This document shows, piece by piece, positions 1 through 45,403 of a DNA stretch of 45,403 nt. The position numbers and the translations under genes are program-made. Location: sequence record NC_027330.1. One strand, given 5' to 3'. Position 1 is the stretch's first letter. Every line of letters begins with the position of its first letter. The notes under the pieces are model-generated. The model saw only the letters and a list, made by a program, of their open reading frames with translations. It was not told where the DNA came from and did not search any database. Source of the DNA: Escherichia phage ECBP5.

Positions 1-208
1 AGCAGGGAATTATCTTTAAGGTTTAATGAATCTAATAAGCGCATGGATGCATTGCTAAGTGCAATGAATAGGGCTAACCCTCTATCAGTAGAGTATGAGG
101 AGCTTAGTAAAATGGCTCACAGCGAGTTGCAAACAATGCAAGCTATTAACAACAGCTCATTGCAACAACTAGAAATGCACTGGACAACCTCAGGTGACTT
201 TAGCCACC
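1..208. repeat. Exact duplicate of 45196-45403 (208 bp); wrap-around of a circularly permuted assembly
   Basis: First 208 bases are identical to the last 208 bases; an ORF starting at 45193 continues in frame into 1..234. Confidence 0.9.
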
Positions 209-234
209 TTCCAGCAGTGGGGATTGGGTTCTAA
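1..234 (+). CDS. Early hypothetical protein, 3' portion of the ORF that starts at 45193 (about 78 aa in total)
   Basis: Position 1 is in frame with ATG at 45193; stop TAA at 232-234. Confidence 0.5.
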   Translation, partial: SRELSLRFNESNKRMDALLSAMNRANPLSVEYEELSKMAHSELQTMQAINNSSLQQLEMHWTTSGDFSHLPAVGIGF

Positions 235-374
235 TGGATTACTTAACACGTATTGCAGCAGCAGAAAGCAAGCTGGCTATAGCTAACTTCTTGGGTGATA
301 AGAAGATGAGAGGGGAAGCTATTCAGGCCATTCACAAAGCTAAACTGGAGTATAGAAACTATGTCAAACGTTAG
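234..374 (+). CDS. Small hypothetical protein (46 aa)
   Basis: ATG shares a base with the upstream stop (TAATG) and the ORF overlaps the next start; below the ORF-track size cutoff. Confidence 0.3.
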   Translation: MDYLTRIAAAESKLAIANFLGDKKMRGEAIQAIHKAKLEYRNYVKR

Positions 375-621
375 AGATAGGGCAGCATCTTATCAGACAC
401 TAGAGTCTTTTAATGTGGATAGCAGAAGTTACCCTAGCCGCACGGTTCGTGGTATGTACCAGCAAGAGCAGCAGATTGCTAAAGCTGAGGAGGCTGGCTT
501 GATAGTCACAGCAGCTGATTTACAGCATACTCATAGCTGCGAGTGCTGTGGTGAGAATGAGGCATACCCTGACGGATTATGTGGCAAATGTTGGAATGAG
601 CTTAAGGCTCACAATGAGTAG
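361..621 (+). CDS. Early hypothetical protein, Cys-rich C-terminus (possible zinc-binding)
   Basis: 86-aa ORF ending HSCECCGENEAYPDGLCGKCWNE. Confidence 0.6.
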   Translation: MSNVRDRAASYQTLESFNVDSRSYPSRTVRGMYQQEQQIAKAEEAGLIVTAADLQHTHSCECCGENEAYPDGLCGKCWNELKAHNE

Positions 622-694
622 TTCACTTTAAGCCAGCAGGAGCTTGCTGGCTTATGGGGAGATACCCATAACTAACTAACTTGAGGTTAACAAG

Positions 695-1729
695 ATGCAA
701 AACATTAATGACTCTCTGCTGGCTATCATCAAGGGCTTTGACAAGATGACTGTTAAGGCTGCTTGGACTGAGGTTGATGCGCTGGGTGTAGATGTTAGCT
801 CATTGAATACCAAAACCCGTGAGGGCTTTATTACCTCTCTTGACCAGCTGCGCGTAAGCCTGAATGAGGCAGCTGTAGTTGAGGAGGAAGCTACTCTGAT
901 GTCTGAGCTGGATTGCTTAGAGGGTGAGATTAAGGCTACTATCGCTGATGCTGGTAAGGCTACTTTCCACTTAGGCGAGCTGCTGCTGAAAGCTAAAGAT
1001 GCTCACGAAAGCACACCGGACTTTCTGAAGTGGGTAGATGAGAAGTTTGGAATCAAGAAAGCTTGGGCTTATCGCTTGATGAAAGTGGCTAGCGTATTCC
1101 AAGAGGATGCATGGAAAGCAACTGCTGTTGAGGTGCTGTACACCCTGCAATCCCAAGCCACTGACAGCCAGCTTGAGCAAGCCAGAGAGCTGGCTGAGGC
1201 TGGCAAGCTAAACCGCAAGACTCTCTCCGAGCTGCTGGAACCTGTAGCGCCACCAGTTAAACAAGCTGAGCAGCCAGAGCCACAGAGTAGCCAGAAGCTG
1301 CTGCAACAAGCTGCGGACAGCCTGATTGCAAGCGCTGCTGAGCCACAGGAGGCCGCGCCACAGCTGCCAGAGTCTAGTGCACTAGACAGCAAGCCACAGG
1401 AGGATAAAGAAGACTTGATGGAGCTTGTAAGAGATTTACGTGAGCAACTGGCACTACAGCAGCAGCAGAATGCGGAGCTTATGAAGCAAATCACAGAGGC
1501 TAATAAGCCACGCATAGCGGCTAGTAACGCGCCTATGCTGCCTCAGTTCTCTAGCACTTGCATGTACGCCCGTTTAGGGCTGGCTGCTGAGGATGCAGCA
1601 GATAAGGCTAAGATTCTGGAAGCATTCAAGAGCTTGTGTAAGGCTGGCTATGGCCGCCAGCATGAAGCGTATAGCTTGCTTGATGAAGCTCGCCATAAGC
1701 TCATTCACGCTATGGAGGACGCAGCATGA
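695..1729 (+). CDS. Early hypothetical protein with Q/A/P-rich low-complexity central region
   Basis: 344-aa ORF with GAGG-type RBS upstream; no recognised catalytic motif. Confidence 0.7.
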   Translation: MQNINDSLLAIIKGFDKMTVKAAWTEVDALGVDVSSLNTKTREGFITSLDQLRVSLNEAAVVEEEATLMSELDCLEGEIKATIADAGKATFHLGELLLKAKDAHESTPDFLKWVDEKFGIKKAWAYRLMKVASVFQEDAWKATAVEVLYTLQSQATDSQLEQARELAEAGKLNRKTLSELLEPVAPPVKQAEQPEPQSSQKLLQQAADSLIASAAEPQEAAPQLPESSALDSKPQEDKEDLMELVRDLREQLALQQQQNAELMKQITEANKPRIAASNAPMLPQFSSTCMYARLGLAAEDAADKAKILEAFKSLCKAGYGRQHEAYSLLDEARHKLIHAMEDAA

Positions 1730-1911
1730 TTAACGGGAAACTCTATTTCTCAGAAGTTACTCACTGCTATTATCTGGTTAATGGTGATAGCTACCATTAT
1801 TATGAAACTTTTAGAAATACTCTTTGGCAGAAAAGCATTAATAATGCAGCACTTTTATTCTATTCACGAATAGATTTAAGGTTGTTGGGTAACAACTTCA
1901 GGCTTAAGTAA
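1726..1911 (+). CDS. Small hypothetical protein (61 aa)
   Basis: ATGA start/stop overlap with the upstream gene; AT-rich; weak support. Confidence 0.35.
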   Translation: MINGKLYFSEVTHCYYLVNGDSYHYYETFRNTLWQKSINNAALLFYSRIDLRLLGNNFRLK

Positions 1912-1960
1912 CTACTGGCGGCTAGCGATAGCCGCTATCAACTCTTTATAAGGAAATCAG

Positions 1961-4594
1961 ATGTACACTAGCGATGAGCTTTACCAGAAACAACTTGAGC
2001 TAGAAGGGGAGATGCATGGCTACGGTGTTACTCGCTTTGACCGTAACAACCAACGTGCGATTGATAGCGGTACACCTTCAGACACTGATTGGAACCGCCG
2101 TTTACTTTCTAACTTCATTGAGCCTATGGTGAAGGGTATTAATGCTTATAAGGAGTACTACAAGACTAAAGCTGGACGGCCTACAGTGGCTTTAAAGTAC
2201 ATCCGGCAGGTGCAGCCAGAGCAAGCGGCATACATCGCCATTAAGAACATTCTGGATGTGCTGGGTAGTACAACATTTGATGCTAACTGGCTTGTTACCA
2301 CTATTGGGCGTAGGATTGAAGACCAAGTAAGATTTACTAAGCTTGAGGAGGCTGCACCTAAGTATGTAGGCAAGGTTAAGGATAGCTTAGCTAAGCGCAA
2401 CTCTCTCCAGTATGCACACCAGCATAAGGTACTGGTCGCTACTGAGAAGAAGCTAGCGGAGAATCCAGACCGTGCTCAGCTTGAGCTGCCACGCTGGCAG
2501 GAGTGGGCTGAGGAGGATTGCAAGCACGTTGGTAGCTTGCTGGTCAATATCTTTGAGCAGTGTATTCTGTTTGAGGGTGAGCCAGTAATCCGCAAGGAGG
2601 TGCAGACAGTTCGCAAAGGTACACTGGTCTTCATCAAGCCTACTGAGAAAGTTACCAAGTGGATTCATGAGTTCAGAGAGGCTATTGGCGGGCTTGCTCC
2701 AGCTTACGCACCTTGCGTAGTTCCTCCGCTTGATTGGACTTCCCCATTTACTGGCGGGTTCCATACTGAAGCTGTTAGCAGCACTCTACATCTTGCTAAG
2801 GTTCGCAACAAGCGCCACCTGCGCAAGCTGACTAAAGAGCAGATGCCAGCAGTCTACAAGGCTGTAAATAACTTGCAGAAAGTGCGCTGGCGTATCTCTG
2901 AGCGTGTACTGGCAACCGCTAATACACTAGTGGAGCTGGGCTTGCCTTATGCGCTGCCGTCAAAGGATGAAAGCGACTGGAAAGAAAAGAATCCATGCCC
3001 TGTACCTGAGTACCTGCAAGACCTGCGAGGCGAGCAGCTGAAAGCGGCGCTTACTGCCAGCCAGTGGGAGGCTTTTCAAGAGTGGAAACAACTGGCACGC
3101 CAGAACTACGACGAGGAGAGCGAGCGCGTAGCAAGCTTTAGGGAAGTTGTTCGTACTTTAGGGCAGGCTAACCGCTACGTTGGCTTTGATGCAATCTACT
3201 TTGTGTACACGCTGGACTTTCGCGGGCGTGTCTACTGCCAGAGCAGCCTTGTAAGCCCACAGGGTGGCGACTTGCAGAAAGCCCTCATCAAGTTTGCGGA
3301 TGGTATGAAGCTGGGTGAGCGCGGCGAGTACTGGTTCAAGGTGCATGGCGCTAACGAATGGGGCTGGGATAAGAAGACCTTTGATGAGCGCGTAGCTCTG
3401 GTCAGCGAACCTGAGTTCTGCGAGATGTGCCTAGACATTGCCAGTGACCCAGTGACCTTCAATGACTGGATTAAGGCCGATAAGCCGTGGCAGTTCCTCA
3501 ACTGGTGCTTTGAGTATGCTGACTTCCTGAAGCATGTGCAATCAGCTGGCAACCCACAGGACTTTGTAAGCTATATCCCTTGTGCAATGGATGGTTCTTG
3601 CTCTGGCATCCAGCACTACTCTGCAATGCTGCGCGATACTGTTGGCGGTACTGCTGTTAACTTGGTTAACTCTGACAAGCCTAATGACATCTACGGAGAG
3701 GTCTGCAAGGTGACTATTAAAGAGCTGCAAGCAATTGCTGACGGCTCACAGGTATATGACAGCAAGATTGACCCTGTATTAGCTCAGCAGCTGGCGCAGG
3801 AGTGGCTACGTCTGCAACCAAATCGCAGCCTGACCAAGAAACCTGTTATGACCCTGCCTTACGGCAGCACTCAGTTAACCTGCCGTGAGCATGTTAGCCA
3901 GTGGCTTAAAGATTTGCAGAAGGAGGAGAACAAGCGAGCTAAGGCAGAGTTCAGAGAGCCTATGAAGGTACACGCTTTCGGCGATGCAGACAGCGCTATG
4001 CCGCTAAAGTTTGCTGAGTCTCTTATGACTAGCATTGTTTGGCACTCTATCGGCAAGGTTGTAGTAGCTGCGAGGGCTGGTATGGCTTACATCAAAGCCG
4101 TAACAAGCTCAGTGGCTAAGATGAATATGCCGCTTGAGTGGACTACTCCAACAGGCTTTATTGTCCGTCAGGAGATTTACCAGTTCACAACACGTCAGGT
4201 AAATACTCAGCTGCTGGGTGGAACTAAGTTTGTGGTCAGCACTAAGAGTAAAGATATTGATTATCATCGTATGATTAACTCCTGTGCGCCTAACTTTGTT
4301 CACTCAATGGATGCGAGCCACCTTACACTGGCAACTAACTACTTTGCAGATGCAGGTATTAGCAGCATTGCAGTAATCCATGATAGCTTTGGCACACATG
4401 CAGGAGCCACTGACCTGCTGCGTGAGCGTCTGCGAGCTTCAATGGTAGATATGTACGAACAGCATGACGTTATCACTAACTTCCTTGCTGAAACTGAGGG
4501 CAGACTTATGACAGCTTTTGAGCACATTCGAGTGCCAGAGCGTGGTGAGCTGCAACTTGATAGCATTAATCAATCTACATACGCTTTTGCGTGA
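1961..4594 (+). CDS. Single-subunit DNA-directed RNA polymerase (T7 gene 1 homologue)
   Basis: 877 aa; T7 RNAP-like segments DGSCSGIQHYSAMLRD, APNFVHSMDASHL, HDSFGTHA and C-terminal ...YAFA. Confidence 0.95.
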   Translation: MYTSDELYQKQLELEGEMHGYGVTRFDRNNQRAIDSGTPSDTDWNRRLLSNFIEPMVKGINAYKEYYKTKAGRPTVALKYIRQVQPEQAAYIAIKNILDVLGSTTFDANWLVTTIGRRIEDQVRFTKLEEAAPKYVGKVKDSLAKRNSLQYAHQHKVLVATEKKLAENPDRAQLELPRWQEWAEEDCKHVGSLLVNIFEQCILFEGEPVIRKEVQTVRKGTLVFIKPTEKVTKWIHEFREAIGGLAPAYAPCVVPPLDWTSPFTGGFHTEAVSSTLHLAKVRNKRHLRKLTKEQMPAVYKAVNNLQKVRWRISERVLATANTLVELGLPYALPSKDESDWKEKNPCPVPEYLQDLRGEQLKAALTASQWEAFQEWKQLARQNYDEESERVASFREVVRTLGQANRYVGFDAIYFVYTLDFRGRVYCQSSLVSPQGGDLQKALIKFADGMKLGERGEYWFKVHGANEWGWDKKTFDERVALVSEPEFCEMCLDIASDPVTFNDWIKADKPWQFLNWCFEYADFLKHVQSAGNPQDFVSYIPCAMDGSCSGIQHYSAMLRDTVGGTAVNLVNSDKPNDIYGEVCKVTIKELQAIADGSQVYDSKIDPVLAQQLAQEWLRLQPNRSLTKKPVMTLPYGSTQLTCREHVSQWLKDLQKEENKRAKAEFREPMKVHAFGDADSAMPLKFAESLMTSIVWHSIGKVVVAARAGMAYIKAVTSSVAKMNMPLEWTTPTGFIVRQEIYQFTTRQVNTQLLGGTKFVVSTKSKDIDYHRMINSCAPNFVHSMDASHLTLATNYFADAGISSIAVIHDSFGTHAGATDLLRERLRASMVDMYEQHDVITNFLAETEGRLMTAFEHIRVPERGELQLDSINQSTYAFA

Positions 4595-4603
4595 GGTGAC
4601 AAG

Positions 4604-5008
4604 ATGGAAAACTTTAAAGTAACTGAGCTTGATGATGAATTCATTATTATCCAAGAGTATGCTTGGCAGCGTCCAGAAACTATCACAGTATCTATAACAG
4701 AGACTGATGAAGCTGGTAACACTAAATTGGTCAAAGAGTGGAAAGAGCAGCGCAAGCCAGAGAATAAAGAGCTTCTTGCTGACATCTATATCTTTAATAA
4801 AAGCCAGCTAGATATGATGCGGTGGAATTATCAACTAGGTAACTGTCCTATTACTCAGAAGGGCTTACGTCGCTACTCGCTGGCTTATGGAAGCGGTAAT
4901 AACTGGTTTGGTTGCCCAGCAAGGACAGCTAAGCAGATGCTTAAGAGAGGTGTAGCTATACCTAAAGAGCTGTATGGATTATTCACTCATGTAAATGGAG
5001 CCTACTAA
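4604..5008 (+). CDS. Hypothetical protein (134 aa)
   Basis: ORF with GAGGTGA RBS 6 nt upstream. Confidence 0.6.
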   Translation: MENFKVTELDDEFIIIQEYAWQRPETITVSITETDEAGNTKLVKEWKEQRKPENKELLADIYIFNKSQLDMMRWNYQLGNCPITQKGLRRYSLAYGSGNNWFGCPARTAKQMLKRGVAIPKELYGLFTHVNGAY

Positions 5009-5184
5009 TGGAAGCTTTAATTAAAGGGCAGACCGTGTGGATTCACAGCTACACAGTGGGTCATGGTAACAACATTAAGCTCAAGCAGAGCGTCCACACG
5101 GATAAAGAGAAAGCCGTAGAAGCTTGGCGCTTGTTGGGTGGTTGGTTTAATGAGGCTGTAATTGTTGGAGTTGGTCAACAATGA
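5008..5184 (+). CDS. Small hypothetical protein (58 aa)
   Basis: TAATG overlap with upstream stop and ATGA overlap with downstream start; not in ORF track (<60 aa). Confidence 0.4.
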   Translation: MEALIKGQTVWIHSYTVGHGNNIKLKQSVHTDKEKAVEAWRLLGGWFNEAVIVGVGQQ

Positions 5185-5525
5185 AACTAAGTTATGAAGA
5201 ACTTGAGGCCAAGTGCGCTGCGCTGGCTGCGGAGAATGCGGGGCTGAAGAGTATACAGGAGTGGGCGGTTTCAGGCGTATTTAAATCAGGAGCTAAGGTA
5301 TTCGAGTCAACCAAAGCATCAGGATTTGACACTGACGACTGCCTACATGATGCGGTGCTTGTGATGCTATCTGAGCTGAAAACCCCGGCCACCGACGCTT
5401 TTCTGGCTGAAGTACGGGCGCAGGGTGTGGAGATGTTTGCAAAATATATAGCCCTTTACAATTCCAACTCAGAGCACCATGCGCAATCGTTCGCCGCACA
5501 GCTTCGCAAAGGGGTGCAGTTATGA
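5181..5525 (+). CDS. Hypothetical protein (114 aa)
   Basis: ORF translationally coupled to flanking genes. Confidence 0.6.
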   Translation: MKLSYEELEAKCAALAAENAGLKSIQEWAVSGVFKSGAKVFESTKASGFDTDDCLHDAVLVMLSELKTPATDAFLAEVRAQGVEMFAKYIALYNSNSEHHAQSFAAQLRKGVQL

Positions 5526-5948: not shown

Positions 5949-5954
5949 GTCACA

Positions 5955-6078: not shown

Positions 6079-6153
6079 AACAGGCGTTCCTACGTGAATA
6101 CTTTAAAATTTTGCGGGCGATTATCCGTCAGAATTTAAAGTTTTCTGAAAATC

Positions 6154-6175
6154 TTTAGGCACTACAATAGGGAGC
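6154..6175 (+). promoter_or_regulatory. Phage-RNAP promoter candidate (consensus copy)
   Basis: TTTAGGCACTACAATAGGGAGC; resembles the T7-class promoter layout (CACTA..ATAGG core, +1 G). Confidence 0.6.
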
Positions 6176-6274
6176 AAGCTAAGTAAGTTAAGTAAGCTAT
6201 AGTAAGCTAACTAAAGCTTAGTAAGCTCCCCTCTTTCCCTCTTTATAGAGGGATATAATATAGTAAGCCTTATC

Positions 6275-9541: not shown

Positions 9542-9578
9542 GCCACTTCGGTGGCTTTAGTATAGTGTACTAGACTGG
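9541..9578 (+). terminator. Hairpin with TTCG loop plus partial palindrome-family copy
   Basis: GCCAC-TTCG-GTGGC followed by TTT, then AGTGTACTAGACTGG. Confidence 0.4.
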
Positions 9579-13412: not shown

Positions 13413-13433
13413 TATTAAGCACTACAATAGGTA
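13413..13433 (+). promoter_or_regulatory. Phage-RNAP promoter candidate
   Basis: TATTAAGCACTACAATAGGTA immediately after the DNAP stop. Confidence 0.5.
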
Positions 13434-13461
13434 TAACAAACTAACTAACCAAGGAGTTATT

Positions 13462-14609: not shown

Positions 14610-14610
14610 T

Positions 14611-14633
14611 ATTAGGCACTACAATAGGAATAG
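14611..14633 (+). promoter_or_regulatory. Phage-RNAP promoter candidate (consensus copy)
   Basis: ATTAGGCACTACAATAGGAATAG. Confidence 0.6.
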
Positions 14634-14755: not shown

Positions 14756-14779
14756 TATTAAGCACTACAATAGGAATAG
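14756..14779 (+). promoter_or_regulatory. Phage-RNAP promoter candidate
   Basis: CTATTAAGCACTACAATAGGAATAG. Confidence 0.55.
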
Positions 14780-14838: not shown

Positions 14839-14875
14839 TGAATATCTCTTTCAAACTTTATGAGGAATTAATATT

Positions 14876-15235
14876 ATGGCATTTGTAATCAAATCTGATG
14901 TATCCAGTCGTATCGTAGCTGGCTCTTTCAAAAAGTCTGAGTTCTTCTATGTAGCTGATGAAGCTACTGGTGAGCTGGTTGGTAAGAAGTCTCACGACAT
15001 TCGTGAAGAAGCTGAACTGGAGCTGGCTGGTCTGGCAGGTCTGGAAGCTGGTCTGGAGTTCGCTAAGGCTCAGTTCCCTAAACTGTCCACTAAAGCTCAG
15101 GTTGGCAAAGCCAACGTAATCTCCGAGTATCTGGCTTGGGAAGCAGCTGGTAAGCCAGTTAAGTCTGTTGAAGAAGCAGACTCTGAAGAAGTACCGGAAG
15201 CTCCAGAAGCTGCCGCAGAAGACGAAACATTCTAA
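14876..15235 (+). CDS. Acidic 119-aa protein with SSB-like acidic C-terminal tail ending in Phe; probably highly expressed
   Basis: Preceded by three promoter-like motifs and followed by a strong terminator; net negative charge; C-terminus EAPEAAAEDETF. Confidence 0.75.
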   Translation: MAFVIKSDVSSRIVAGSFKKSEFFYVADEATGELVGKKSHDIREEAELELAGLAGLEAGLEFAKAQFPKLSTKAQVGKANVISEYLAWEAAGKPVKSVEEADSEEVPEAPEAAAEDETF

Positions 15236-15241
15236 TAAACT

Positions 15242-15279
15242 GCCCCATTGGTCAATTCGACCTTTGGGGCTTATTTTTG
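15242..15279 (+). terminator. Rho-independent terminator
   Basis: GCCCCATTGGTCAATTCGACCTTTGGGGC hairpin followed by TTATTTTTG. Confidence 0.65.
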
Positions 15280-15290
15280 TTGGAGGGTTT

Positions 15291-15413
15291 ATGCCTGTTT
15301 TCAAAAGGGTTTGTATGCTGTGTGGTACAGCGTTTTCTCCGGTTAAGAAAAGTCCATTCCTTTGCATAAGGTGTTACAGGAGTTGTGTTAAAGAGAGGGC
15401 TACTAATGTTTGA
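15291..15413 (+). CDS. Small zinc-ribbon-like protein (40 aa)
   Basis: GGAGGG RBS 5 nt upstream; CxxC...CxxC (CMLCG...CIRCY); stop overlaps the exonuclease start; not in ORF track. Confidence 0.4.
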   Translation: MPVFKRVCMLCGTAFSPVKKSPFLCIRCYRSCVKERATNV

Positions 15414-18013: not shown

Positions 18014-18029
18014 AAACTACAATAGGACT
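18009..18029 (+). promoter_or_regulatory. Phage-RNAP promoter candidate (variant)
   Basis: GTTAGAAACTACAATAGGACT overlapping the upstream stop codon. Confidence 0.45.
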
Positions 18030-18052
18030 AACAACTTAGGAAACTTACTGTA

Positions 18053-23991: not shown

Positions 23992-24008
23992 ATTTCAACC
24001 ACTTAATA

Positions 24009-24030
24009 ATTAGGCACTACAATAGGAGAA
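24009..24030 (+). promoter_or_regulatory. Phage-RNAP promoter candidate (consensus copy) driving the capsid gene
   Basis: ATTAGGCACTACAATAGGAGAA. Confidence 0.6.
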
Positions 24031-24091
24031 GCTGAAAGTAGCTTTGTGGGCTAGTGCCTACCTAATAAATTTATAAGGAGACAACTAATAT

Positions 24092-34000: not shown

Positions 34001-34929
34001 TGATGAAGGGTGCTGAGTATGGCGATGCAGTTATTGGACAGGTGTCTAGGGCTGATAAGGTACTGGACAACATCGGATGGCTGCAAAGCACTATGTCCTT
34101 CCTCCGACCTATGCAGGGTATGATTGATGAGCTATCTGCTCGTAGCATCATGACCAACATAGTTGACCTGTCTAAGAATGGGATGTTCACTGGTAAGGTT
34201 CGCAAGAGCTTCCTTGAGCTTGGTAAGATGTCTGAGGATTCACTTGATTCCAGTATGACTCACATTAAGTCTCAGATGGGTTCTGGTAAGGACATCTTTG
34301 AAGCTATCCGCACACTTGACCCTAAGCTGCGTGATGAGCTTGGTACAGCTATTCGTACCATCCACACATTCAACATTGGCCGCTCTTACTATGGGGAGCT
34401 TCCAGCATTTACTAACCAATCGCTTGGTAAGATTTTCATGAAGCTTCAGTCATTCGCACTGGTAGCTTATGAGAAATCTATTCAGCGTGGTTTCCGTAAT
34501 GACCAAGCTGGATTAGTTGCAGCAACTGCTTGGTCAGCTGGATTAGCCTACTTGTGGTCTGAGGTGGATGTCCGTGCTCAGTCACTCAAGCAACCTGAGG
34601 CTAAGCGTGATGAGTACGTTCGTAAGCGCCTTGAGGATGAGATGGCTTATACAGTTGCCGGACGTATGTCTCAGCTTGCTGTACTCAGCACACTTGCTCA
34701 GGTCATGAACGTAGCTAACCCATATCAAGACAGTGTGCTCAAGCCTTTCGGTGAGTACCGTGGTGTTGCAGCAGGTGGTGCTATTGGCAAGGTTGGTCAG
34801 GCAGCAGCAGCTGGCACACGGCTTGCAACAGACCAGTCAGTAGACCCTGATGCTGATATGTATAAAGTCTATGGAGCTGTACCACTATTGAACACTGCAA
34901 TAGGTATGGCAATCCTCAACACATTATAG
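31066..34929 (+). CDS. Internal virion protein (T7 gp16-like), apparently without N-terminal transglycosylase domain
   Basis: 1287 aa; position and size; no ES...GLxQ motif seen at the N-terminus. Confidence 0.7.
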   Translation: MAETSVPQEQSFGDLFGAAARNNWILQQKQQSEDLMTYGTPVEGYKPSYEDVSKITTDYKLTDEQSKIISGSMSPEELQYRAKVFKDNNDSKKTLDNAGWKGMAAEVLSYAADPVMLPTYALKTPMVVGQIATKLGFQFSKTAVTGAIERAVGAGIVGGATGLGQEAVLSMYDPNRDVNDVVLAGISGVVGGAAFSSLADGGAAIFERLTAKRQLGRAMDEAVEAFDWDNSISLVNSADHELTGASMGRIENTQYGKYFDMLQGDIPDELARKRVLTEGDAINKMIDDLTPTAEARMSRGQRMEAEAQIKATSHDMEIIAQRLADVEATAPAGSGKALSKARQDRAAELSSLRSQLDDLRAQVVTKQTELAPHATGEYAEAVGDISRLKQGIIPDRLKERYLDLITPEDPAPAFNEAVAGLPPVKDEPVVLPEQAAQEAAKPVEQPDTSIGAAEVKDSIIFPDTEGKEISDTYANVLGGLQKIGEKIPVTKVAGSTALYTRVMAGTKDNTLRGIASLVFNDPHGVKGAPQSAIAFSDTMRTSIMPKAFFIENAAKEQYLKQLGVNPLFQAGKYNEELIKFDRNIMLRMTELTDTVIGDADDAITRAAKARAQAYAESLKLMKRYGVRGFENVEERASYTPVTFGKNDITSALDQFGEDAVREVLARGYMTGKIPLSDKSARLVADNTLERFYRKSGKVAAVKPTESISGKIAEVVNELREGGVADSEIRTVINMLQDKAHDESISARAMQSLHPNLAAETTDGLRFVDLVDSSTASVDKYVRDAAAQAAFAKYGMRSRRQVEDTITEAFKRHRQQLTELTDNYNRAKERLSKLDRSKALPSVVSELEKTIKDYERLGDINKYRKFLDSYEEDFFNGVKVTFGEPVEQANSIAYAASSTGKLVNLMMLGFSGLAQVADLGVTIARSGVGATLRNLPTTLYHGVRSLLPSARYFETNNQLNNMAEIFGTVSHQDYLFGHKMMKGAEYGDAVIGQVSRADKVLDNIGWLQSTMSFLRPMQGMIDELSARSIMTNIVDLSKNGMFTGKVRKSFLELGKMSEDSLDSSMTHIKSQMGSGKDIFEAIRTLDPKLRDELGTAIRTIHTFNIGRSYYGELPAFTNQSLGKIFMKLQSFALVAYEKSIQRGFRNDQAGLVAATAWSAGLAYLWSEVDVRAQSLKQPEAKRDEYVRKRLEDEMAYTVAGRMSQLAVLSTLAQVMNVANPYQDSVLKPFGEYRGVAAGGAIGKVGQAAAAGTRLATDQSVDPDADMYKVYGAVPLLNTAIGMAILNTL

Positions 34930-35865: not shown

Positions 35866-36099
35866 TTGATTCATGAGAAAGTAGGTGAGGTTGCAGCTGA
35901 AGCATTTAAGGCCACACCACCAACTGTTGTTGTTGGCCTGAACATCTTAGGTTACTCAATCTCTGAGTGGGTTCAGGTAGCTACACTTATCTATATCTTC
36001 TTACAGATGCATGTGCTAGCTATTAAGAATATAAGTTCATATAAATCCATGTGGGATTATGTTAAGGAGGTTATTCGTGGCAAGCGTAAGCAAGAGTAA
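35866..36099 (+). CDS. Class II holin (T7 gp17.5-like)
   Basis: 77 aa; TTG start after AGGAGG; hydrophobic SISEWVQVATLIYIFLQ resembles T7 gp17.5 SLNEWFYVAAIAYTVVQ; basic C-terminus. Confidence 0.6.
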   Translation: MIHEKVGEVAAEAFKATPPTVVVGLNILGYSISEWVQVATLIYIFLQMHVLAIKNISSYKSMWDYVKEVIRGKRKQE

Positions 36100-36403
36100 T
36101 AAGAATTCAGCCACAGAGGATGATGTAGGCCTTATCCATAAGCTTGTTACTAAGGTCATCACTAAGAAGCTTGAGAAGTGGTTAGAGCTTATTGAGCAGG
36201 GTGGTGACGTAGATTTAGTTGTGGATATGAAACAGCTCAAGTCTGCCATCGACTGGTGTGACAAGAATGGCATTGTATGTGCTGACCCAGCTGAGCAGAG
36301 TGACAATGAGCTTGGTGATAAACTGTCTGAGATTCGTAAAGCTCAACACGCTCGTGGTGTTGTCGTTCCATTCAAAGAGGATGAGGAGGGTTATGGTACA
36401 TGA
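36077..36403 (+). CDS. Terminase small subunit (T7 gp18-like)
   Basis: GTG start 6 nt after AAGGAGG; about 108 aa; directly upstream of and overlapping the large terminase gene. Confidence 0.6.
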   Translation: MASVSKSNKNSATEDDVGLIHKLVTKVITKKLEKWLELIEQGGDVDLVVDMKQLKSAIDWCDKNGIVCADPAEQSDNELGDKLSEIRKAQHARGVVVPFKEDEEGYGT

Positions 36404-38250
36404 GGCGTGTTAACAGGAACGACAAGAAAGCACAGCTAGAAATGTGGGAGGAGCTTGAAGCGATACAGAAAGCTTTTCCATTTACTGTGCAAGGCTTGTG
36501 GCTGTTTGCCTCACTTGTGCTTGAGAAGACTATTGTAGGCTCTCCTCACCTTAATCGCACACAGAAAGACATTCTTAGCTTCCTGCTTAACGGCGGGAAG
36601 TATATAGGCATACAGGCAAGCCGTGGTATGACCAAGACAGTTATGGCAGCTATCCTATGCTGCTTCTGTCTTATCCACATGCCACACTATCGTATCATTG
36701 TATTCTCACAGAACGGTAAGCGAGCTAAAGAGATTGCAGGCTGGGTAGTTAAAATCTTCTATGCTATAGACATCCTTGAGGTATTGCAGCCAGATACCTA
36801 TGCTGGCGACCGTTCATCCATTGAAGCTTTTGATATTCATTGGTGCTTCCGTGGTGCTGATAAGTCACCATCTGTCACCTGCTATTCTATCGAGTCAGGT
36901 GCGCAGGGTGCTCGTGCTGACCTTATCCTTGCTGATGATATTGAGTCGCTACAAAACTCCCGTACAGCTCAGAGCCGTGAGTGGCTGCTTGAGCAGTCAT
37001 TAGAGTTTGAGTCGATTAACCAGTATGGTCGTATCATCTATCTAGGTACACCTCAGGGTGTTGAGTCTATCTACAACACGCTTCCAGCTCGTGGCTACGT
37101 TATGCGTATCTGGCCTGGCCGTTATCCAACAGCTGAGCAGCTTGAGTTCTATGGCAATGCTCTGGCTCCATTATTCCGTAAGGATATTGAAGCTGACCCA
37201 AGCTTGCAAAGCGGTGGTGGGCTTGATGGTACTATGGGCAAGCCAACAACACCTGCTATGTATGATGAGGAGTTGTTGCAAGAGAAGGAGATGAGGCAAG
37301 GTCTTGCTAAGTTCATGTTGCAGTTCATGGTTCACACAGGTATGTCTGACCGTGACCGCTTCAAGCTTAAGCTAGAGAATCTGGTACTAATGAACTTCAA
37401 TGCCATGCAAGGTGCGGTTATGCCTGTGTGGAACAGTGACCAACGTAGCATGTGGCAAGCTGCCCCTCGCTTTGGTACACGTCCACAAGACAGGTTCTAC
37501 TTTGCTATGCAGCAGCCATATATCATGCGTGACTTTGACCTAACTGTTATGTTCATTGACCCAGCTGGTGGTGGCTCCCGCTCACAGGATGAGATGGGTT
37601 ATGCGATAACCAAGCTACTCGGTACTTATGTCTACATCTATGATGTTGATGGTGTCAAGGGTGGGTATGAACAATCAGAGCTGATGAAGCTTGTACAAGC
37701 TGCTAAGGATGCTAAGGTCAACGTTTGCTATGTTGAAAAGAACTATGGTAACGGTGCTCACTTTGCAATGCTTAAGCCACTGTTTGAGAAGTTTTACCCA
37801 GAGTGTAGGCTTGAGGAAATTAACTCAACAGGTCAGAAGGAACTACGTATCATCGATACACTAGAACCACTGCTGGGTCAGCATCGCTTGGTAGTATCAC
37901 AGACAGCTGTTATGAAGGACTACAACAGCATTCAGAAGTACCCAGCAGAGGTCAAGATGACTTACAGCTGCTTCTACCAACTTGCTCACATAACGAGCGA
38001 CCGTGGGGCGCTGAGGCACGATGACCGCTTAGACGCACTGGCTGGGGCTGTGGCGCAGATTGTCAACTACATCGACTATGACCAAGAGAAGGCCGAGAAA
38101 GACCGACAGGCGGAGGCTGACAAGCATTTCTTTGAGGTTATGGCTAACCCTAATGGTTTCGTCCACACGATGATGCACGGTGGTGATTTTATGAGCTATG
38201 TTGAGCAGCAAAACACCGGAGCCAACGCACTCAAGAAATACTTTAATTAA
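36400..38250 (+). CDS. Terminase large subunit (T7 gp19-like)
   Basis: 616 aa; position after holin/small subunit; ATPase-like LILADDIESL segment. Confidence 0.8.
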   Translation: MRRVNRNDKKAQLEMWEELEAIQKAFPFTVQGLWLFASLVLEKTIVGSPHLNRTQKDILSFLLNGGKYIGIQASRGMTKTVMAAILCCFCLIHMPHYRIIVFSQNGKRAKEIAGWVVKIFYAIDILEVLQPDTYAGDRSSIEAFDIHWCFRGADKSPSVTCYSIESGAQGARADLILADDIESLQNSRTAQSREWLLEQSLEFESINQYGRIIYLGTPQGVESIYNTLPARGYVMRIWPGRYPTAEQLEFYGNALAPLFRKDIEADPSLQSGGGLDGTMGKPTTPAMYDEELLQEKEMRQGLAKFMLQFMVHTGMSDRDRFKLKLENLVLMNFNAMQGAVMPVWNSDQRSMWQAAPRFGTRPQDRFYFAMQQPYIMRDFDLTVMFIDPAGGGSRSQDEMGYAITKLLGTYVYIYDVDGVKGGYEQSELMKLVQAAKDAKVNVCYVEKNYGNGAHFAMLKPLFEKFYPECRLEEINSTGQKELRIIDTLEPLLGQHRLVVSQTAVMKDYNSIQKYPAEVKMTYSCFYQLAHITSDRGALRHDDRLDALAGAVAQIVNYIDYDQEKAEKDRQAEADKHFFEVMANPNGFVHTMMHGGDFMSYVEQQNTGANALKKYFN

Positions 38251-38283
38251 TGGCAATAATCCCTTAGTTTTCATAACTTTGGG

Positions 38284-38305
38284 ATTAGGCACTACAATAG
38301 GAGAA
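38284..38305 (+). promoter_or_regulatory. Phage-RNAP promoter candidate (consensus copy)
   Basis: ATTAGGCACTACAATAGGAGAA followed by AGTAAG-repeat leader. Confidence 0.6.
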
Positions 38306-38422
38306 AGCTAAAGTAAGTACAGTAAGTAAACAGTAGCTATAAATAGCTATAGTAAGCTTTAGTTAGCCTAAGTAGTAACCTACTTATTGTCTTATTATAT
38401 TCTTTATAAGGAGAGCTATTAG

Positions 38423-40353: not shown

Positions 40354-40361
40354 GAGTAATC

Positions 40362-40799: not shown

Positions 40800-40855
40800 C
40801 CGCCTTATTACTCATAGCTATTCACAGTGAGTGGCTAGCAGTAATAGGAGATAAC

Positions 40856-42484
40856 ATGGCTAAACTTACAAGAGTAACGGACGCATTTGTGTACGTTAAG
40901 TCTAAATTAGCTGGAGCAATCCAGCGACTGTTAGAAGACAAGATGACTGACACTCTATCCATTAAGGATTTTGGTGCAGTCGGAGATGGTGTGCATGATG
41001 ACACAGATGCAATCATTGCAGCCTTCGCAGCTGCTAAGAACAAGTTTGGGGTCATTGCACCCTCAGGCCGTTATCGTGTAACCAGAGAGATTCCAGTCGA
41101 TTATGCACTGGTACTTATCGGGGAAGGTGGGAATGGCTTTAAGGGTACAAACTCAAGCCACAATCCATCGCCTCACTTTGGCACTACCTTTGTAAGTGAC
41201 ATGGCTAGTGGATACGTGTTCAATATCTCACCTGCTGCTTTCCAGTTTGGTCTTACCTTGCGTGACTTCTCTATCGAGCGTAACGAGTCATTAGGTATCA
41301 ACAATGCACGAGGTATGAGACTACATAATGTAGGGTGGACTGGTATCGTAGACAACGTGTGTATTGATGGCTTCTGGGAACATGGCTTGGTTATTGGTTA
41401 TATCCAAGATACACACTTCCGAGGCTGTACGGTATTACGTTGTGGTAATGAAGATGTGCCTAGTATTGAGATTGTTAATGACTCAAACTACGTATACTTC
41501 TTAAACTGCCATATCGAGTATTCTCCGTTCCTGTTCAAGAATACTGGCAATGCTTGGGAAGTTCACTTCACAAATAACCACTTTGAAGTTGCACAGTACG
41601 GCTCTAGCTCTGGTCTGCCTACCTTGAAGTATAAGCAAGCTCCGCTACAGCTTGGTGGTGGCAACATGGTTACTTTCAATACTTGTACAATTGTACCAGT
41701 ATCTGATGAGTATCTTCAGACTGCCCTTGGCATACCGTTTGACTCTTTACCATATTTCATTACTGGCTCGGGTTCATTCGTCAAGTTCATCAACTGCTCT
41801 GGTATTGCGCCAGAAGGTTCTGTCAGCTACATGTACCTAACAGGTACTGGTAATAAGGTACTTGGTGGCACATGGAAAGACATGACACCTAGGCGCCCTA
41901 GTATTGTCCTTGAAGATGGTGACATTGCTAATAACACATTAGCTATCCGTGTAGCTGCTGATGAGACAAAGCTGTACGGTGTCTTAGTCAATACTCGTGG
42001 CAAGATTACTGATAACTTGTTAACTGCATCAGGTACAGCGTCTACTACACGCAGAACTACTGGCATCCTTGTTGGATGTAGCCCTAGTGCGCCATTAGGA
42101 GCTGTTCAAGTTAGTGGTAACACTTATGACCTTGGTAATAGACCTAACCGCTATGTCTACCATCGTATTCAGATCAGTGGTCATGATGGAGGCTGCTCTT
42201 ACTTTGAGGGTATTAATGCCGCATTGTTTGACTTGGACTATGAGCTTTATAACCCTGCTGCAAACTTTGCTATGTGGAATACAACCTCATGGCAAGTGAC
42301 CAGTCAGGTCAATATGAATCCAGGACGTGTAGTAATGTTCCACGCAGGTGCAATAGCTGGATTTATTAATTACAGTGCATATGTAAAGAATGCTACGTTT
42401 AATAACCTTGCAGTAGAAGCTGGTGCATCTATTATGTACAAAGGCATCTCTGACGGTGAAGCAAGGATGTTCCAAGTTAAGTAA
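40856..42484 (+). CDS. Tailspike with pectate-lyase-like beta-helix domain (putative polysaccharide depolymerase)
   Basis: IKDFGAVGDGVHDDTDAIIAAF is a pectate-lyase-type beta-helix N-cap signature; 542 aa. Confidence 0.85.
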   Translation: MAKLTRVTDAFVYVKSKLAGAIQRLLEDKMTDTLSIKDFGAVGDGVHDDTDAIIAAFAAAKNKFGVIAPSGRYRVTREIPVDYALVLIGEGGNGFKGTNSSHNPSPHFGTTFVSDMASGYVFNISPAAFQFGLTLRDFSIERNESLGINNARGMRLHNVGWTGIVDNVCIDGFWEHGLVIGYIQDTHFRGCTVLRCGNEDVPSIEIVNDSNYVYFLNCHIEYSPFLFKNTGNAWEVHFTNNHFEVAQYGSSSGLPTLKYKQAPLQLGGGNMVTFNTCTIVPVSDEYLQTALGIPFDSLPYFITGSGSFVKFINCSGIAPEGSVSYMYLTGTGNKVLGGTWKDMTPRRPSIVLEDGDIANNTLAIRVAADETKLYGVLVNTRGKITDNLLTASGTASTTRRTTGILVGCSPSAPLGAVQVSGNTYDLGNRPNRYVYHRIQISGHDGGCSYFEGINAALFDLDYELYNPAANFAMWNTTSWQVTSQVNMNPGRVVMFHAGAIAGFINYSAYVKNATFNNLAVEAGASIMYKGISDGEARMFQVK

Positions 42485-42567
42485 TAAGTATTAATACTTA
42501 TTGAATCGTAACCAATTGGCAGCTTGCTAGGTAGTTATAGTAAGCTGCTGTTAACTGGAGTAAAGTT

Positions 42568-42696
42568 ATGTTATCTAATCAAGAGTTATTAGAAAAGTTT
42601 GATGAACTTATGTCACATCTCAATAGTGAAGACAACAGTATGGCTGAGGAGTTCAGAATTAATCTAGAGGAAGTATTAGAGTATCTTGTAAGCTAG
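42568..42696 (+). CDS. Small acidic hypothetical protein (42 aa)
   Basis: GGAG RBS 8 nt upstream; helical acidic peptide; weak support. Confidence 0.3.
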   Translation: MLSNQELLEKFDELMSHLNSEDNSMAEEFRINLEEVLEYLVS

Positions 42697-42873
42697 CTAG
42701 GTAGCCATTAGTGGTTACTGTAAGCTGGCCTTGAAACTTAAAATAGGGTGGACAGTTACAGCAGTTCCCGCCGCCGCCAGCTTCAGCTTTCCCCCATCGG
42801 GGTGGCTGCTGGCAACCTCTTAGGCCGCAGGCAGTTAGAGGGGGGGTGGGTAGGCTGGCTAGGTAGCTGGCAG

Positions 42874-43033
42874 TAGACCGACTGGTCTAGCGTAAGTCAT
42901 TGATGTTGTATCAGCTAACGAGTACATGAGAGCGCTGTACGTGAATACTTGCTGGCTCAAGCTGGCTGTGGCTCACAGAATTCTCCAGAGTGCGCTATAC
43001 ATATCAATGACTTACGTTAGACCGACTGGTCTA
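42874..43033. repeat. Two direct copies of 16-bp near-palindrome TAGACCGACTGGTCTA flanking an inverted repeat CGTAAGTCATTGAT / ATCAATGACTTACG
   Basis: Copies at 42874-42889 and 43018-43033; inverted repeat arms at 42891-42904 and 43003-43016. Confidence 0.75.
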
Positions 43034-43486
43034 CTAGTGGCTGGTCAGGCAGCTGCTGTGAGCTGGCTAGGTGGCTTACGGATAGCCGATTGTGAGCAGC
43101 CAGTGAGCCGCTGTGGGCTTCAGCTCCGCTGTGGCTACGGTTGGCTTGCCAGTGGCTTGAGGCGCTCTGTGAGCTGCTGAGGGCTGTGGCTTGCTGTACT
43201 CGTGTGCTAGTACGCTGCTGTGTGTATCTGTCTTTAGTCTGATGGGCTACTGTCTTTAGTTTGCTGCACCACTGGTAGCTTATTGGGTAGCTCATAGGTA
43301 GCTTACAAGGCTCACAGCTTGCTGGTACTACTGAGGGCTTACTAGGTAGCTTGCTATCACTGACTAGGTAGCTGCTGTTAGTTCACTAGGTAGCTAGCTA
43401 TGGCTTACTAGGTAGTTACTAGGTGGATTGATGTAAGCTTACTCAAGCTCTCTCTTAGTGCATCATTCGATGCACAATATAAGAAG

Positions 43487-43510
43487 AATAAGACACTACA
43501 ATAAGAATAG
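43487..43510 (+). promoter_or_regulatory. Phage-RNAP promoter-like motif (variant) near presumed left end
   Basis: AATAAGACACTACAATAAGAATAG. Confidence 0.4.
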
Positions 43511-43588
43511 AGTACGCCTTGCCAACAGCTCTCATGAGCTATCTAGGTGGCTTACTATCACTTACATCCAACTAACTAGGAGGCTTAC

Positions 43589-43687
43589 ATGAGCCTAGAT
43601 ATGCTGTACACACTAGTAGTCTGCTTTCTCATTAACTTGTTTGTACACTTCATAGCATTTAGCTTGCTAGAGGTATTGGCTGGGTAG
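43589..43687 (+). CDS. Small hydrophobic peptide (32 aa)
   Basis: TAGGAGG RBS 7 nt upstream of ATG; single hydrophobic helix; weak support. Confidence 0.25.
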   Translation: MSLDMLYTLVVCFLINLFVHFIAFSLLEVLAG

Positions 43688-43693
43688 CTTGAG

Positions 43694-43712
43694 TCAGTCT
43701 AGTACACTAGAT
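43694..43712. repeat. Palindrome family copy
   Basis: CAGTCTAGTACACTAGATT. Confidence 0.6.
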
Positions 43713-43745
43713 TAAGCTAATGTGAGCTACATCACTAAAATAGTG

Positions 43746-43774
43746 TTGACTAGGTAGCTCACTGCCTGTATAGT
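43746..43774 (+). promoter_or_regulatory. Host sigma70-type early promoter candidate
   Basis: TTGACT, 17-bp spacer, TATAGT; downstream TACTTACA resembles the T7 A1 start region. Confidence 0.45.
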
Positions 43775-44031
43775 TACTTACATCAAGACGACACAGCAAC
43801 AAGTTATCTTGATAGTGGCTCTAGTAGCTACTTGCTCTTTAACAATATGATGATTAGAAGCTTAGGCTGTACGGGTATTACTTCTCCTCAATCCGTCGCA
43901 AGACATCAGTGAGAGGCTAGCAGGAAGCGCTAGGGCAATAGAAAGTGACCTTATGCAGTGCTGCTAATCATCAAGCTCTTTAACAATCTGGAATCTACCT
44001 GATAGGCTTACTACAACAAAGGTGAACTATC

Positions 44032-44277
44032 ATGGCTATGAACAAAGTTAAATCTCCATTCGTCAAGATACTGCGTAAGGCTGGCTACTCAGTTAAGGAA
44101 GCAATGAACATCACGCTAGATGCTCAATACAACTTTCATAACACCAGACGCTGCTCAAGCAAGCACTTTAATCACTTGGCTAAGAATGGCAGGGTTGGTT
44201 GTATGTTCCAGTGGGATAACACCCCTGAGGGAGTACAATACTGGAATTATGTGCAGTCTGCGCTTAACAATAGTTAG
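44032..44277 (+). CDS. Early hypothetical protein (81 aa)
   Basis: AAAGGTGA RBS; basic protein. Confidence 0.6.
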   Translation: MAMNKVKSPFVKILRKAGYSVKEAMNITLDAQYNFHNTRRCSSKHFNHLAKNGRVGCMFQWDNTPEGVQYWNYVQSALNNS

Positions 44278-44661
44278 TAATAGATAGCTGCTGGCACTAG
44301 CCAGCCTATCAGGTAGATTCTGGAAGGATAGGAAGTTGAATAGAGCTGATGAAAGCTCTTGTGACCGCTCAAGCGGTGCTAATTAACCTAAGAATGCTCA
44401 GCTAGTGCGAGTCACACCAGAAAGGTGCTGAGCAGCTTATTAAGGTGAGCTTGATAGACTAACCACAACCAATAGGTAGCTATCATGATTTACATCCCAC
44501 TTAAGACTTACATACTGGCTATAACTTACACTGCTGTTGTGATTACAACAGCTTGTTTAGTGCTGATGTACGCTGACAGGTACATGTAACAAGGCTAGCC
44601 AGCAGCTGCTGGCAGTCTATCAAGCTTACTTTCAACTGATAGAACAACTGGAGATACAAAG

Positions 44662-44937
44662 ATGCAAACAGTGACTACTAAATACCTGCCAGCTACTAAC
44701 ACTCGTGGGGCACGCATCAAAGTCTCAAGCTGGTTAGGTAATAAAACCTTTAGCTATGACTATGCAGCCAGCTGTGCTCATGAAGCAGCTTTTAATGAGT
44801 GGTTAAAAGAGCAGAATGAAAGAATTGCTTTTGAGTGCCACTCAAATAATCTGAAAGCTAAGGCTGGCGGTTGGTTCAAGCTTGTAGCTAAAGGCAGCTT
44901 GCCGGATGGCAACGGTTACGGGTTTATTGTTAAGTAG
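44662..44937 (+). CDS. Early hypothetical protein (91 aa)
   Basis: GGAGA RBS. Confidence 0.6.
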   Translation: MQTVTTKYLPATNTRGARIKVSSWLGNKTFSYDYAASCAHEAAFNEWLKEQNERIAFECHSNNLKAKAGGWFKLVAKGSLPDGNGYGFIVK

Positions 44938-45002
44938 CAAACTAGCAGCCATTAGCTTACAGTGGCTGCAATGATTGTTACTAACTAACTGAGGTTACAA
45001 TT

Positions 45003-45191
45003 ATGACTTACTTACTTATAGCCGCTTGCGGGTGGCTGATGTTTATCTACAAAGTACGCCGTGACTTTAAGAAGGCTCACGAACGCTACAACATAGTTAA
45101 GCGTGGTGATAATTGGGTTGTGAGAGATAGTAAAGGCCGCTTTGTTACTATCACAGATAACTACTGGAACATTTGCAAGCTGGGAGCATGA
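45003..45191 (+). CDS. Early hypothetical protein with N-terminal hydrophobic segment (62 aa)
   Basis: GAGGT RBS; LLIAACGWLMFIY. Confidence 0.55.
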   Translation: MTYLLIAACGWLMFIYKVRRDFKKAHERYNIVKRGDNWVVRDSKGRFVTITDNYWNICKLGA

Positions 45192-45192
45192 T

Positions 45193-45403
45193 ATGAGCAG
45201 GGAATTATCTTTAAGGTTTAATGAATCTAATAAGCGCATGGATGCATTGCTAAGTGCAATGAATAGGGCTAACCCTCTATCAGTAGAGTATGAGGAGCTT
45301 AGTAAAATGGCTCACAGCGAGTTGCAAACAATGCAAGCTATTAACAACAGCTCATTGCAACAACTAGAAATGCACTGGACAACCTCAGGTGACTTTAGCC
45401 ACC
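45193..45403 (+). CDS. Early hypothetical protein, 5' portion (continues at 1..234 across the wrap-around)
   Basis: ATG at 45193 one base after the upstream stop; open to the window end. Confidence 0.5.
   Translation, partial: MSRELSLRFNESNKRMDALLSAMNRANPLSVEYEELSKMAHSELQTMQAINNSSLQQLEMHWTTSGDFSH
45196..45403. repeat. Exact duplicate of 1-208
   Basis: Identical to window start. Confidence 0.9.

Follow-up and report, generated by a model that had tools for sequence, protein, structure and literature searches.

Wrap-around duplication of 208 bp at the ends of the Escherichia phage ECBP5 genome record, and a predicted direct terminal repeat about 2.4 kb upstream

The genome record of Escherichia phage ECBP5 (NC_027330.1; 45,403 nucleotides, all of which were analysed and are hereafter called the window) begins and ends with the same sequence, and the question is raised whether this repeat represents the physical ends of the virion DNA or a redundancy in the way the genome was written down. 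End-to-end self-comparison of the window gave identity at 208 of 208 positions between bases 1-208 and bases 45196-45403, in agreement with an earlier note on this DNA. The longest sequence shared as prefix and suffix is 208 nt, and fuzzy extension beyond it is absent. In this fixed register the chance of such a match is about 4^-208, and the next-longest exact direct repeat within the 45,195-bp unit is 22 nt (vs about 15 nt expected by chance). We estimate a probability of roughly 0.93 that the window is a complete 45,195-bp genome, opened arbitrarily inside a small early gene with 208 bp duplicated at its ends. The real direct terminal repeat (DTR) is predicted at 42,767-43,225. The two copies of the duplication are as follows.

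1-208, + strand: copy A of the wrap-around duplication, covering codons 2-70 of the junction gene plus 1 nt
45196-45403, + strand: copy B of the wrap-around duplication, identical to 1-208

When the two ends are joined, an intact early open reading frame of 237 nt (78 aa) runs from 45193 to 234; the junction-spanning frame described in the earlier note was thus confirmed by translation. The ORF list of the window itself contains only the 3′ part of this gene (43-234). The junction gene and its two neighbours are located as listed below.

45003-45191, + strand: upstream early gene, 62 aa, phrog_2385 (E=1e-21)
45193-45403, + strand: 5′ part of the junction gene, with the ATG at 45193
1-234, + strand: 3′ part of the junction gene, with the stop codon at 232-234
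234-374, + strand: downstream early gene, Kil-like, 46 aa, PHROG Kil families (E=9e-7)

The junction protein is 97% identical to gp70 of phage MR4 and 31-36% identical to PP99 gp06 and JSF38 orf19, in both of which its N- and C-termini are conserved; its match to phrog_11917 is weak. In relatives the 62-aa gene always adjoins the junction gene, and the exact 62-aa protein is encoded in at least 24 public contigs, where it is followed by a gene of 69-79 aa and then by a Kil-like gene. Homologues of the 46-aa Kil-like protein in public contigs match PF06301 (Lambda_Kil). Pfam matches above the curated cut-offs were found neither for the junction protein and its upstream neighbour nor for nine early-region ORFs and one ORF inside the predicted DTR. 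One 208-bp copy should be removed before annotation, since with both copies kept the genome length is overstated and this early gene falls into two parts.

The repeat could be taken as a genuine short direct terminal repeat, with the virion DNA running from position 1 to position 45403 of the window, because Autographiviridae DTRs measure 160-631 bp, a span that includes its length, the exact identity of its copies is as compatible with a true DTR as with an overlap, and the public record of MR4 is opened about 25 nt away from the repeat boundary (window position ~231). The segment, however, is single wherever else it was found. PP99, JSF38 and MR4 align through the 45195|1 boundary with one copy each, and the 208|209 boundary is also crossed, in single copy, by PP99 and JSF38. 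The exact 78-aa junction protein is also encoded by five independent Logan contigs, which come from different sequencing runs. Each of them carries the 208-nt segment once (99.0-99.5% identity) in a single HSP over both boundaries, and in the four large ones (40-46 kb) the junction gene lies deep in the interior, 10-24 kb from the contig ends. Furthermore, the repeat is situated inside a conserved early coding gene, the predicted left end lies 2,429 nt upstream of it, and no end landmark is present near 1, 208 or 45196, with neither a C-run or palindrome within 1-60 nor an ATCTGT within 209-215; the verified DTRs of phages Nufs112 and Tola, in contrast, are located directly after the last late genes. 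Against this evidence, virion ends at the borders of the window are highly improbable, and the 208-bp repeat should not be recorded as the DTR of this phage.

The break in the MR4 record was considered separately as a possible real feature and was rejected, because it falls at a stop|start gene boundary, MR4 carries a 22-nt deletion there, and the record is a plain SPAdes assembly without termini analysis. A search of IMG/VR with a 34-mer spanning the junction gave no match.

The window is a complete genome of a Gajwadongvirus-like member of Autographiviridae (T7-supergroup podophage). It is collinear on the + strand, on which all its genes lie, with the four relatives taken into the alignment (PP99, MR4, JSF38 and vB_Kp_Z1) over 79-89% of its length, and the genome is therefore complete, as the earlier note had claimed; the unit length of about 45,195 bp given there is correct as the non-redundant length. 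Full synteny and the same promoter family are shared with PP99 (NC_047802), MR4 (MT104467), JSF38, vB_Kp_Z1, Roth32 and RCIP0053/0089, at 90-93% nucleotide identity and 79-89% coverage. The product of identity and coverage to classified members is above the genus threshold of 70% (PP99, ~90% identity in the first 20 kb and 86% whole-genome coverage; MR4, ~93% identity in the first 20 kb and 87.5% whole-genome coverage), and is below 95% for every record checked, so that the phage probably represents a separate species. The phage is placed in Autographiviridae by its gene for a single-subunit RNA polymerase, by the T7-like order of its modules and by genes that all run in one direction. The tailspike cassette (40856-42484) is unmatched in the four aligned genomes and several early genes also differ. 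A search for tRNA genes found none in the genome. The PP99 paper, which is without termini data, states a genome size of 46,609, vs 44,609 in the record. The genes on which the following argument depends are listed below.

1961-4594, + strand: single-subunit phage RNA polymerase (PF00940, E=3e-92; PF14700)
36059-36403, + strand: terminase small subunit (TerS) of T7 gp18 type (PF11123, E=9e-14; phrog_891)
36400-38250, + strand: terminase large subunit (TerL) of T7 gp19 type (PF22530, Terminase-T7 RNaseH-like, E=3e-34; phrog_17672, E=4e-171)
40856-42484, + strand: tailspike, last of the large late genes ahead of the terminal non-coding region (PF12708/beta-helix; phrog_4217)
42568-42696, + strand: small ORF of 42 aa, final gene ahead of the predicted left end (phrog_6163, E=3e-9)

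Small ORFs are also present at the place corresponding to the 42-aa ORF in PP99 (orf56) and Tola (gp70), as far as position was compared.

As to the origin of the duplication, the virion DNA of this T7-supergroup family has fixed ends that bear a short DTR, the two copies of which collapse during assembly. By this collapse the assembly graph closes into a circle, which the assembler or a later step may cut anywhere, leaving an overlap. On this account the 208 bp are an artefact of representation and not DNA present twice in the phage. As an artefact the duplication is unremarkable, and two relatives provide similar examples: vB_Kp_Z1 (PQ308734) carries an exact 127-nt prefix=suffix overlap inside the predicted DTR of that genome, and JSF38 (PV648004) an exact 77-nt overlap at the interior of its gene map. 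Like the overlap in the window, these are exact, belong to complete genomes of the same genus and are arbitrarily placed, but their lengths match common k-mer sizes (127 and 77), whereas 208 is not a common de Bruijn k-mer size.

This length would fit an origin other than a de Bruijn graph, and it was considered whether the window faithfully reproduces a molecule of more than unit length, for instance from a long read or a concatemer assembly running 208 bp past one genome length. T7-type phages do replicate via head-to-tail concatemers. No sign of long reads is present in the window, however, in the form of error patterns or mismatches between the two copies, and a true unit of the concatemer would also have one DTR copy per junction and give the same sequence as the overlap. 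We regard such a molecule as an improbable source. Whether overlap or concatemer, the 208 bp form a redundant representation of a single-copy locus.

Closure of an assembly into a circle is also given by headful phages, in which case the virion DNA itself would be circularly permuted and terminally redundant. Both TerL and TerS of the window are, however, of T7 type, the conserved end landmarks described below are present and unique, and the sister phage Nufs112, the ends of which have been verified, is placed by TerL trees among the T7-type short-DTR packagers (PMC9915841). Headful packaging is thus hardly credible for this phage. The term 'circularly permuted' in the earlier note applies to the contig, which is rotated, and not to the virion DNA, the ends of which are fixed in the family. 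That note read the repeat as an overlap and not as a true terminal repeat, and this reading is supported by the location in a coding gene, the single copy elsewhere, the T7-type packaging genes, the sister overlaps and the end landmarks about 2.4 kb upstream.

These landmarks lie between the last late genes (tailspike and 42-aa ORF) and the early promoters, and from them the real DTR is predicted at 42,767-43,225, the exact boundaries being based on homology of short motifs. The predicted repeat is present once in the window because assembly collapses two copies. The elements of the region are as follows.

42527-43757, + strand: array of 11 CTAGGTRG repeats, flanking and entering the predicted terminal region
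42739-42747, + strand: TAAAATAGG motif, unique in the genome, with the predicted left end 19 nt downstream
42767-43225, + strand: predicted real direct terminal repeat of ~459 bp by the landmark rule, boundaries ± ~2 nt; T42766 is a possible left end
42792-42802, + strand: CCCCATCGGGG palindrome, found once in the genome, at +26 counted from the predicted left end
43226-43237, + strand: ATCTGTCTTTAG, directly after the predicted DTR, resembling the T7 concatemer-junction (CJ) class II pause/termination signal
43487-43510, + strand: leftmost copy of the phage promoter family, variant AAGACACTACAATAAGA, a regex match at the position of T7/T3 phiOL
43746-43774, + strand: best sigma-70-like early promoter, TTGACT-17-TATAGT, by consensus match, preceding the first early gene (44032)

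The 1.5-kb terminal non-coding region holds all 11 copies of CTAGGTRG in the genome (binomial P=8e-17), including a run of 22-nt periodicity at 43342-43426. ATCTGT is found at 26663, 27497, 33585, 36870, 38908 and 43226, and a second CTGTCTTTAG is located at 43250. The scan of the terminal region for sigma-70 promoters detected 5, vs 5.3 expected from shuffled sequences, indicating no enrichment. With the end-motif 26-mer, only PP99 and one 27.7-kb ENA contig were matched in IMG/VR and the metagenome collection.

Among lineages whose ends have been determined, the closest are Pantoea phage Nufs112, with a 410-bp SDTR determined by Sanger run-off (PMC9915841), and Aeromonas phage Tola, with a 631-bp DTR determined by PhageTerm (PMC9145550), both of which share only ~72-75% identity with the window in core genes. 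Common to both and to the window are TAAAATAGG at an equal spacing of 19 nt before the left end, the C-rich triplet-repeat start, the palindrome at 26 and ATCTGT at DTR+1, and both verified repeats stand immediately behind the last small late ORF, as predicted here. The DTRs differ in length, and no alignment is possible across the interior of the repeat. The position and flanking landmarks of the 42,767-43,225 element thus agree with those in genomes with determined ends.

The landmark rule was derived from T7, K1E, Nufs112 and Tola, and was benchmarked on 9 genomes with known DTRs, including SP6, T3, Nifs112, Lolek and Bolek beside these four. At the right boundary, the first ATCTGT was at DTR+1 (± 2 nt) in 7 of the 9 genomes, the rule failing in Bolek and Lolek. 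At the left end, a looser motif of C-run plus AT was present in 9/9. The CCCCATCGGGG palindrome motif is located at genome position 26-27 in T7, K1E, Nufs112 and Tola, and variants of it at +24 to +33 in SP6, T3, Nifs112, Lolek and Bolek; the strict palindrome, being carried by only 4 of the 9, was rejected as a universal rule. We propose tentatively, at somewhat under even odds, that the C-run/CCCCAT.GGGG palindrome ~26 nt inside the left end and the ATCTGT after the repeat mark the physical ends across distant Autographiviridae (Studiervirinae, Molineuxvirinae, Gajwadongvirus and Tola-like phages). If this holds, assembled sequence alone could suffice to locate real DTRs, such as the ~459 bp at 42,767-43,225, and concatemer cutting coupled to RNA polymerase pausing would be conserved well beyond T7.

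The end layout predicted for the window resembles that of T7 and T3. In T7 and T3 the same order is found, consisting of a C-run/CCCCAT.GGGG palindrome at about +26, ATCTGT directly after the repeat, flanking arrays of short repeats, a phiOL-like promoter, a host-type promoter and the first early gene. The repeat predicted here (~459 bp) is longer than the DTRs of T7 and T3 (160 and 231 bp), the signal after it is ATCTGTC where the CJ class II signal is ATCTGTT, and the flanking CTAGGTRG repeats are unlike those seen in T7. As judged from T7, the ATCTGT element may serve as a pause site of RNA polymerase for concatemer processing.

Of practical use is that the ends are now predicted at testable positions, with the left end at ~42,766/7, the DTR extending to 43,225 and a virion DNA of ~45.65 kb. 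The virion DNA is predicted to begin at CCCGCCGCC (or TCCCGCC) and to end at ...GCTGCTGTGTGT, and its length would be ~45,654 bp, i.e., 45,195 bp plus one predicted DTR. End overlaps on circularising phage contigs are the 'DTR' signal that completeness tools use; the 208-bp repeat correctly signals completeness but tells nothing of the true ends 2.4 kb away, and pipelines should be cautious about equating every direct repeat at contig ends with a biological DTR.

By the same landmarks, DTRs of ~458 bp for MR4, ~459 bp for JSF38, ~347 bp for PP99 and ~520 bp for vB_Kp_Z1 are predicted. None of these four records, all of which were checked, is organised by physical ends; all were opened arbitrarily, that of PP99 inside its own predicted DTR.

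Self-comparison of the ends of the window confirmed that nucleotides 1-208 are identical to 45196-45403, as the earlier note had stated. No longer prefix recurs as a suffix, no imperfect extension continues beyond 208 nt, and other exact direct repeats in the 45,195-bp unit reach at most 22 nt; with a probability of about 4^-208 for a fixed-register match of this length, the identity of the ends is not due to chance. As a k-mer size, 208 would be unusual. The ORF proposed to cross the junction was also recovered, running from ATG at 45193 to a stop codon at 232-234, and the reconstructed 78-aa junction protein is 97% identical to gp70 of phage MR4 (MT104467), while its N-terminus and a C-terminal MHWTTSGDFSHL block are common to PP99 gp06 and JSF38 orf19. 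The 208-bp repeat falls within this conserved protein-coding early gene.

The corresponding locus is single-copy in the relatives, the boundary 45195|1 being aligned through in PP99 (NC_047802), JSF38 (PV648004) and MR4, and the boundary 208|209 being crossed by the alignments of PP99 and JSF38. The exact junction protein is encoded by an uninterrupted gene in five public Logan contigs assembled independently from separate sequencing runs (40.4, 44.9, 45.8, 44.9 and 1.2 kb), located 10-24 kb from the contig ends in all four large ones. Each of the five carries one copy of the 208-nt segment (99.0-99.5% identity), and one alignment spans both boundaries. Because these contigs run uninterrupted through both boundaries, the circle was closed correctly and nothing is missing at the junction. 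Overlaps of similar kind were found in sister records, at different and likewise arbitrary positions, with prefix and suffix identical over 127 nt in vB_Kp_Z1 (PQ308734) and over 77 nt in JSF38, where the overlap falls inside the gene map. Given its location in a conserved gene, its single copy in relatives and in five assemblies, and these sister-record artefacts, the 208-bp repeat is not biological but an ordinary artefact, in support of the proposal of a wrap-around overlap rather than a true terminal repeat.

A 22-nt indel relative to MR4 adjoins the right boundary of the repeat; the MR4 record is without 22 nt (window ~207-228), shortening the junction protein to 70 aa, and was opened at the next stop|start gene boundary, about 25 nt past the end of the repeat. 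This proximity is probably a coincidence or else reflects a variable site disturbing assemblies; we took it as coincidence because the break lies at a stop|start boundary of a SPAdes assembly made without termini analysis.

The window represents a T7-supergroup podophage and carries the following genes; no tRNA genes were found in it.

1961-4594, single-subunit RNA polymerase (PF00940, 3e-92)
36400-38250, large terminase, T7-type (PF22530, 3e-34)
small terminase, T7 gp18-type (PF11123)

The records closest to it are those of Gajwadongvirus or Gajwadongvirus-like phages (JSF38, 93%; PP99, 90%; also MR4, vB_Kp_Z1, Roth32 and RCIP0053/0089), and the window probably represents a new species of a known genus. 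After rotation of each genome to one common landmark, the window was collinear on the plus strand with PP99, MR4, JSF38 and vB_Kp_Z1 at 79-89% coverage, the tailspike cassette being the main block without match, and the gene complement is therefore complete. The tailspike (40856-42484, pectate-lyase-like beta-helix) has no counterpart in these four relatives, and its best cultured-phage matches, tailspikes of ~72-kb and ~156-kb E. coli/Salmonella phages, are only ~35% identical. The listed hosts of the relatives (Vibrio, Pseudomonas, Pectobacterium, Klebsiella, Edwardsiella) differ despite 82-93% genome identity, so that the host is not readable from them.

Members of the Autographiviridae package DNA from concatemers; their genomes end at fixed positions in short direct terminal repeats (DTRs). 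The description as circularly permuted thus holds for the contig but not for virion DNA. As inferred from how such genomes assemble, both DTR copies would collapse into one, and reads would run from the right unique end into the DTR and from there into the left unique end; because both unique ends are connected in this way, the assembly graph would form a cycle, later opened at an arbitrary point with the overlap retained.

For prediction of the real ends, we compared the end sequences of the closest lineages with experimentally determined ends, Pantoea phage Nufs112 (DTR of 410 bp by Sanger run-off; PMC9915841) and Aeromonas phage Tola (631 bp by PhageTerm; PMC9145550), in both of which the repeat begins directly after the last small late ORF. 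The shared landmarks are TAAAATAGG followed by 19 nt, a start made up of C-rich triplet repeats, the palindrome CCCCAT.GGGG at position 26-27 of the genome (in T7 and K1E too), and ATCTGT starting exactly one base past the repeat (one-base overlap in K1E). Among nine genomes with known DTR, the ATCTGT boundary was correct within +/-2 nt in seven (T7, T3, SP6, K1E, Nufs112, Tola and Nifs112) and wrong in Bolek and Lolek; the C-run+AT motif was present at +24..33 in 9/9 and the strict palindrome in 4/9. This small benchmark supports the landmark rule. The terminal region of the window contains:

42739, TAAAATAGG, unique in the genome
42792, palindrome CCCCAT.GGGG, unique in the genome
43226, ATCTGT, one of six genome copies and the first downstream of the palindrome
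43487-43510, plus strand, phiOL-like promoter copy downstream of the predicted DTR
43746-43774, sigma-70-type promoter, good match, downstream of the predicted DTR
44032, first early gene, downstream of both promoters

Together the landmarks predict from sequence a DTR of ~459 bp at 42,767-43,225, although the left end could be T42766, since TCT starts most verified ends. The length of 45,195 bp proposed earlier stands for the unit; the packaged genome would be longer by this repeat, with virion DNA of ~45,654 bp. The landmark pair occurs once each in MR4, JSF38, PP99, vB_Kp_Z1 and one ENA contig (DTR estimates of 347-531 bp), and also in most Logan and ENA contigs fetched. The PP99 record is opened inside its own predicted DTR; the PP99 paper states a genome of 46,609 bp versus 44,609 bp in the record.

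In comparison with the T7 and T3 annotations, the predicted repeat has similarly arranged surroundings. All 11 genome copies of CTAGGTRG lie in a 1.5-kb non-coding stretch around it (P=8e-17). In T7, pausing at an ATCTGT-type signal is linked to concatemer processing, and the window element, which reads ATCTGTC, may play the same role, judging from its position and sequence. The predicted DTR also holds a 33-nt inverted repeat (42872-42904 and 43003-43035; 85% complementary, 98-nt spacer) with two exact copies of palindromic TAGACCGACTGGTCTA, partly conserved in vB_Kp_Z1. In related Logan contigs (L014 1-69, L020 1-73, L017 104-337), small genes near the genome end, upstream of the terminal region, have precomputed Pfam anti-defence matches (Tad2-like PF11195 and Acb2/Tad1 hairpin PF24729); none of that kind was found among the window ORFs scanned.

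A family of phage-RNAP promoter-like sequences with core ~TTAGGCACTACAATAGGA comprises about 9-10 sites, all on the plus strand and mostly intergenic (6153-6176, 13413-13436, 14610-14633, 14756-14779, 18008-18031, 24008-24031, 34886-34909, 38283-38306 and 43487-43510; also 22252-22275); 10 phage promoters were predicted for PP99 in its paper. A palindrome of 16 bp, GTCTAGTAYRCTAGAC, is repeated in gaps between genes (6034, 6314, 14567 and 39338; variants near 9560 and 43691), several times just past a gene end and ahead of a promoter or gene start; it may serve for RNA processing, act as a terminator hairpin or bind a protein. In a genome that otherwise reads from the plus strand throughout, a 169-aa ATG ORF on the minus strand (14858-15367) overlaps the plus-strand ORF 14876-15235 and is probably spurious. 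Within ORF 5181-5525, a 62-nt stretch (5379-5440) matches the 'EaE' gene found in P22-like Salmonella phages and in one E. coli phage at 95% identity, and is a small mosaic patch common to the window and unrelated temperate phages.
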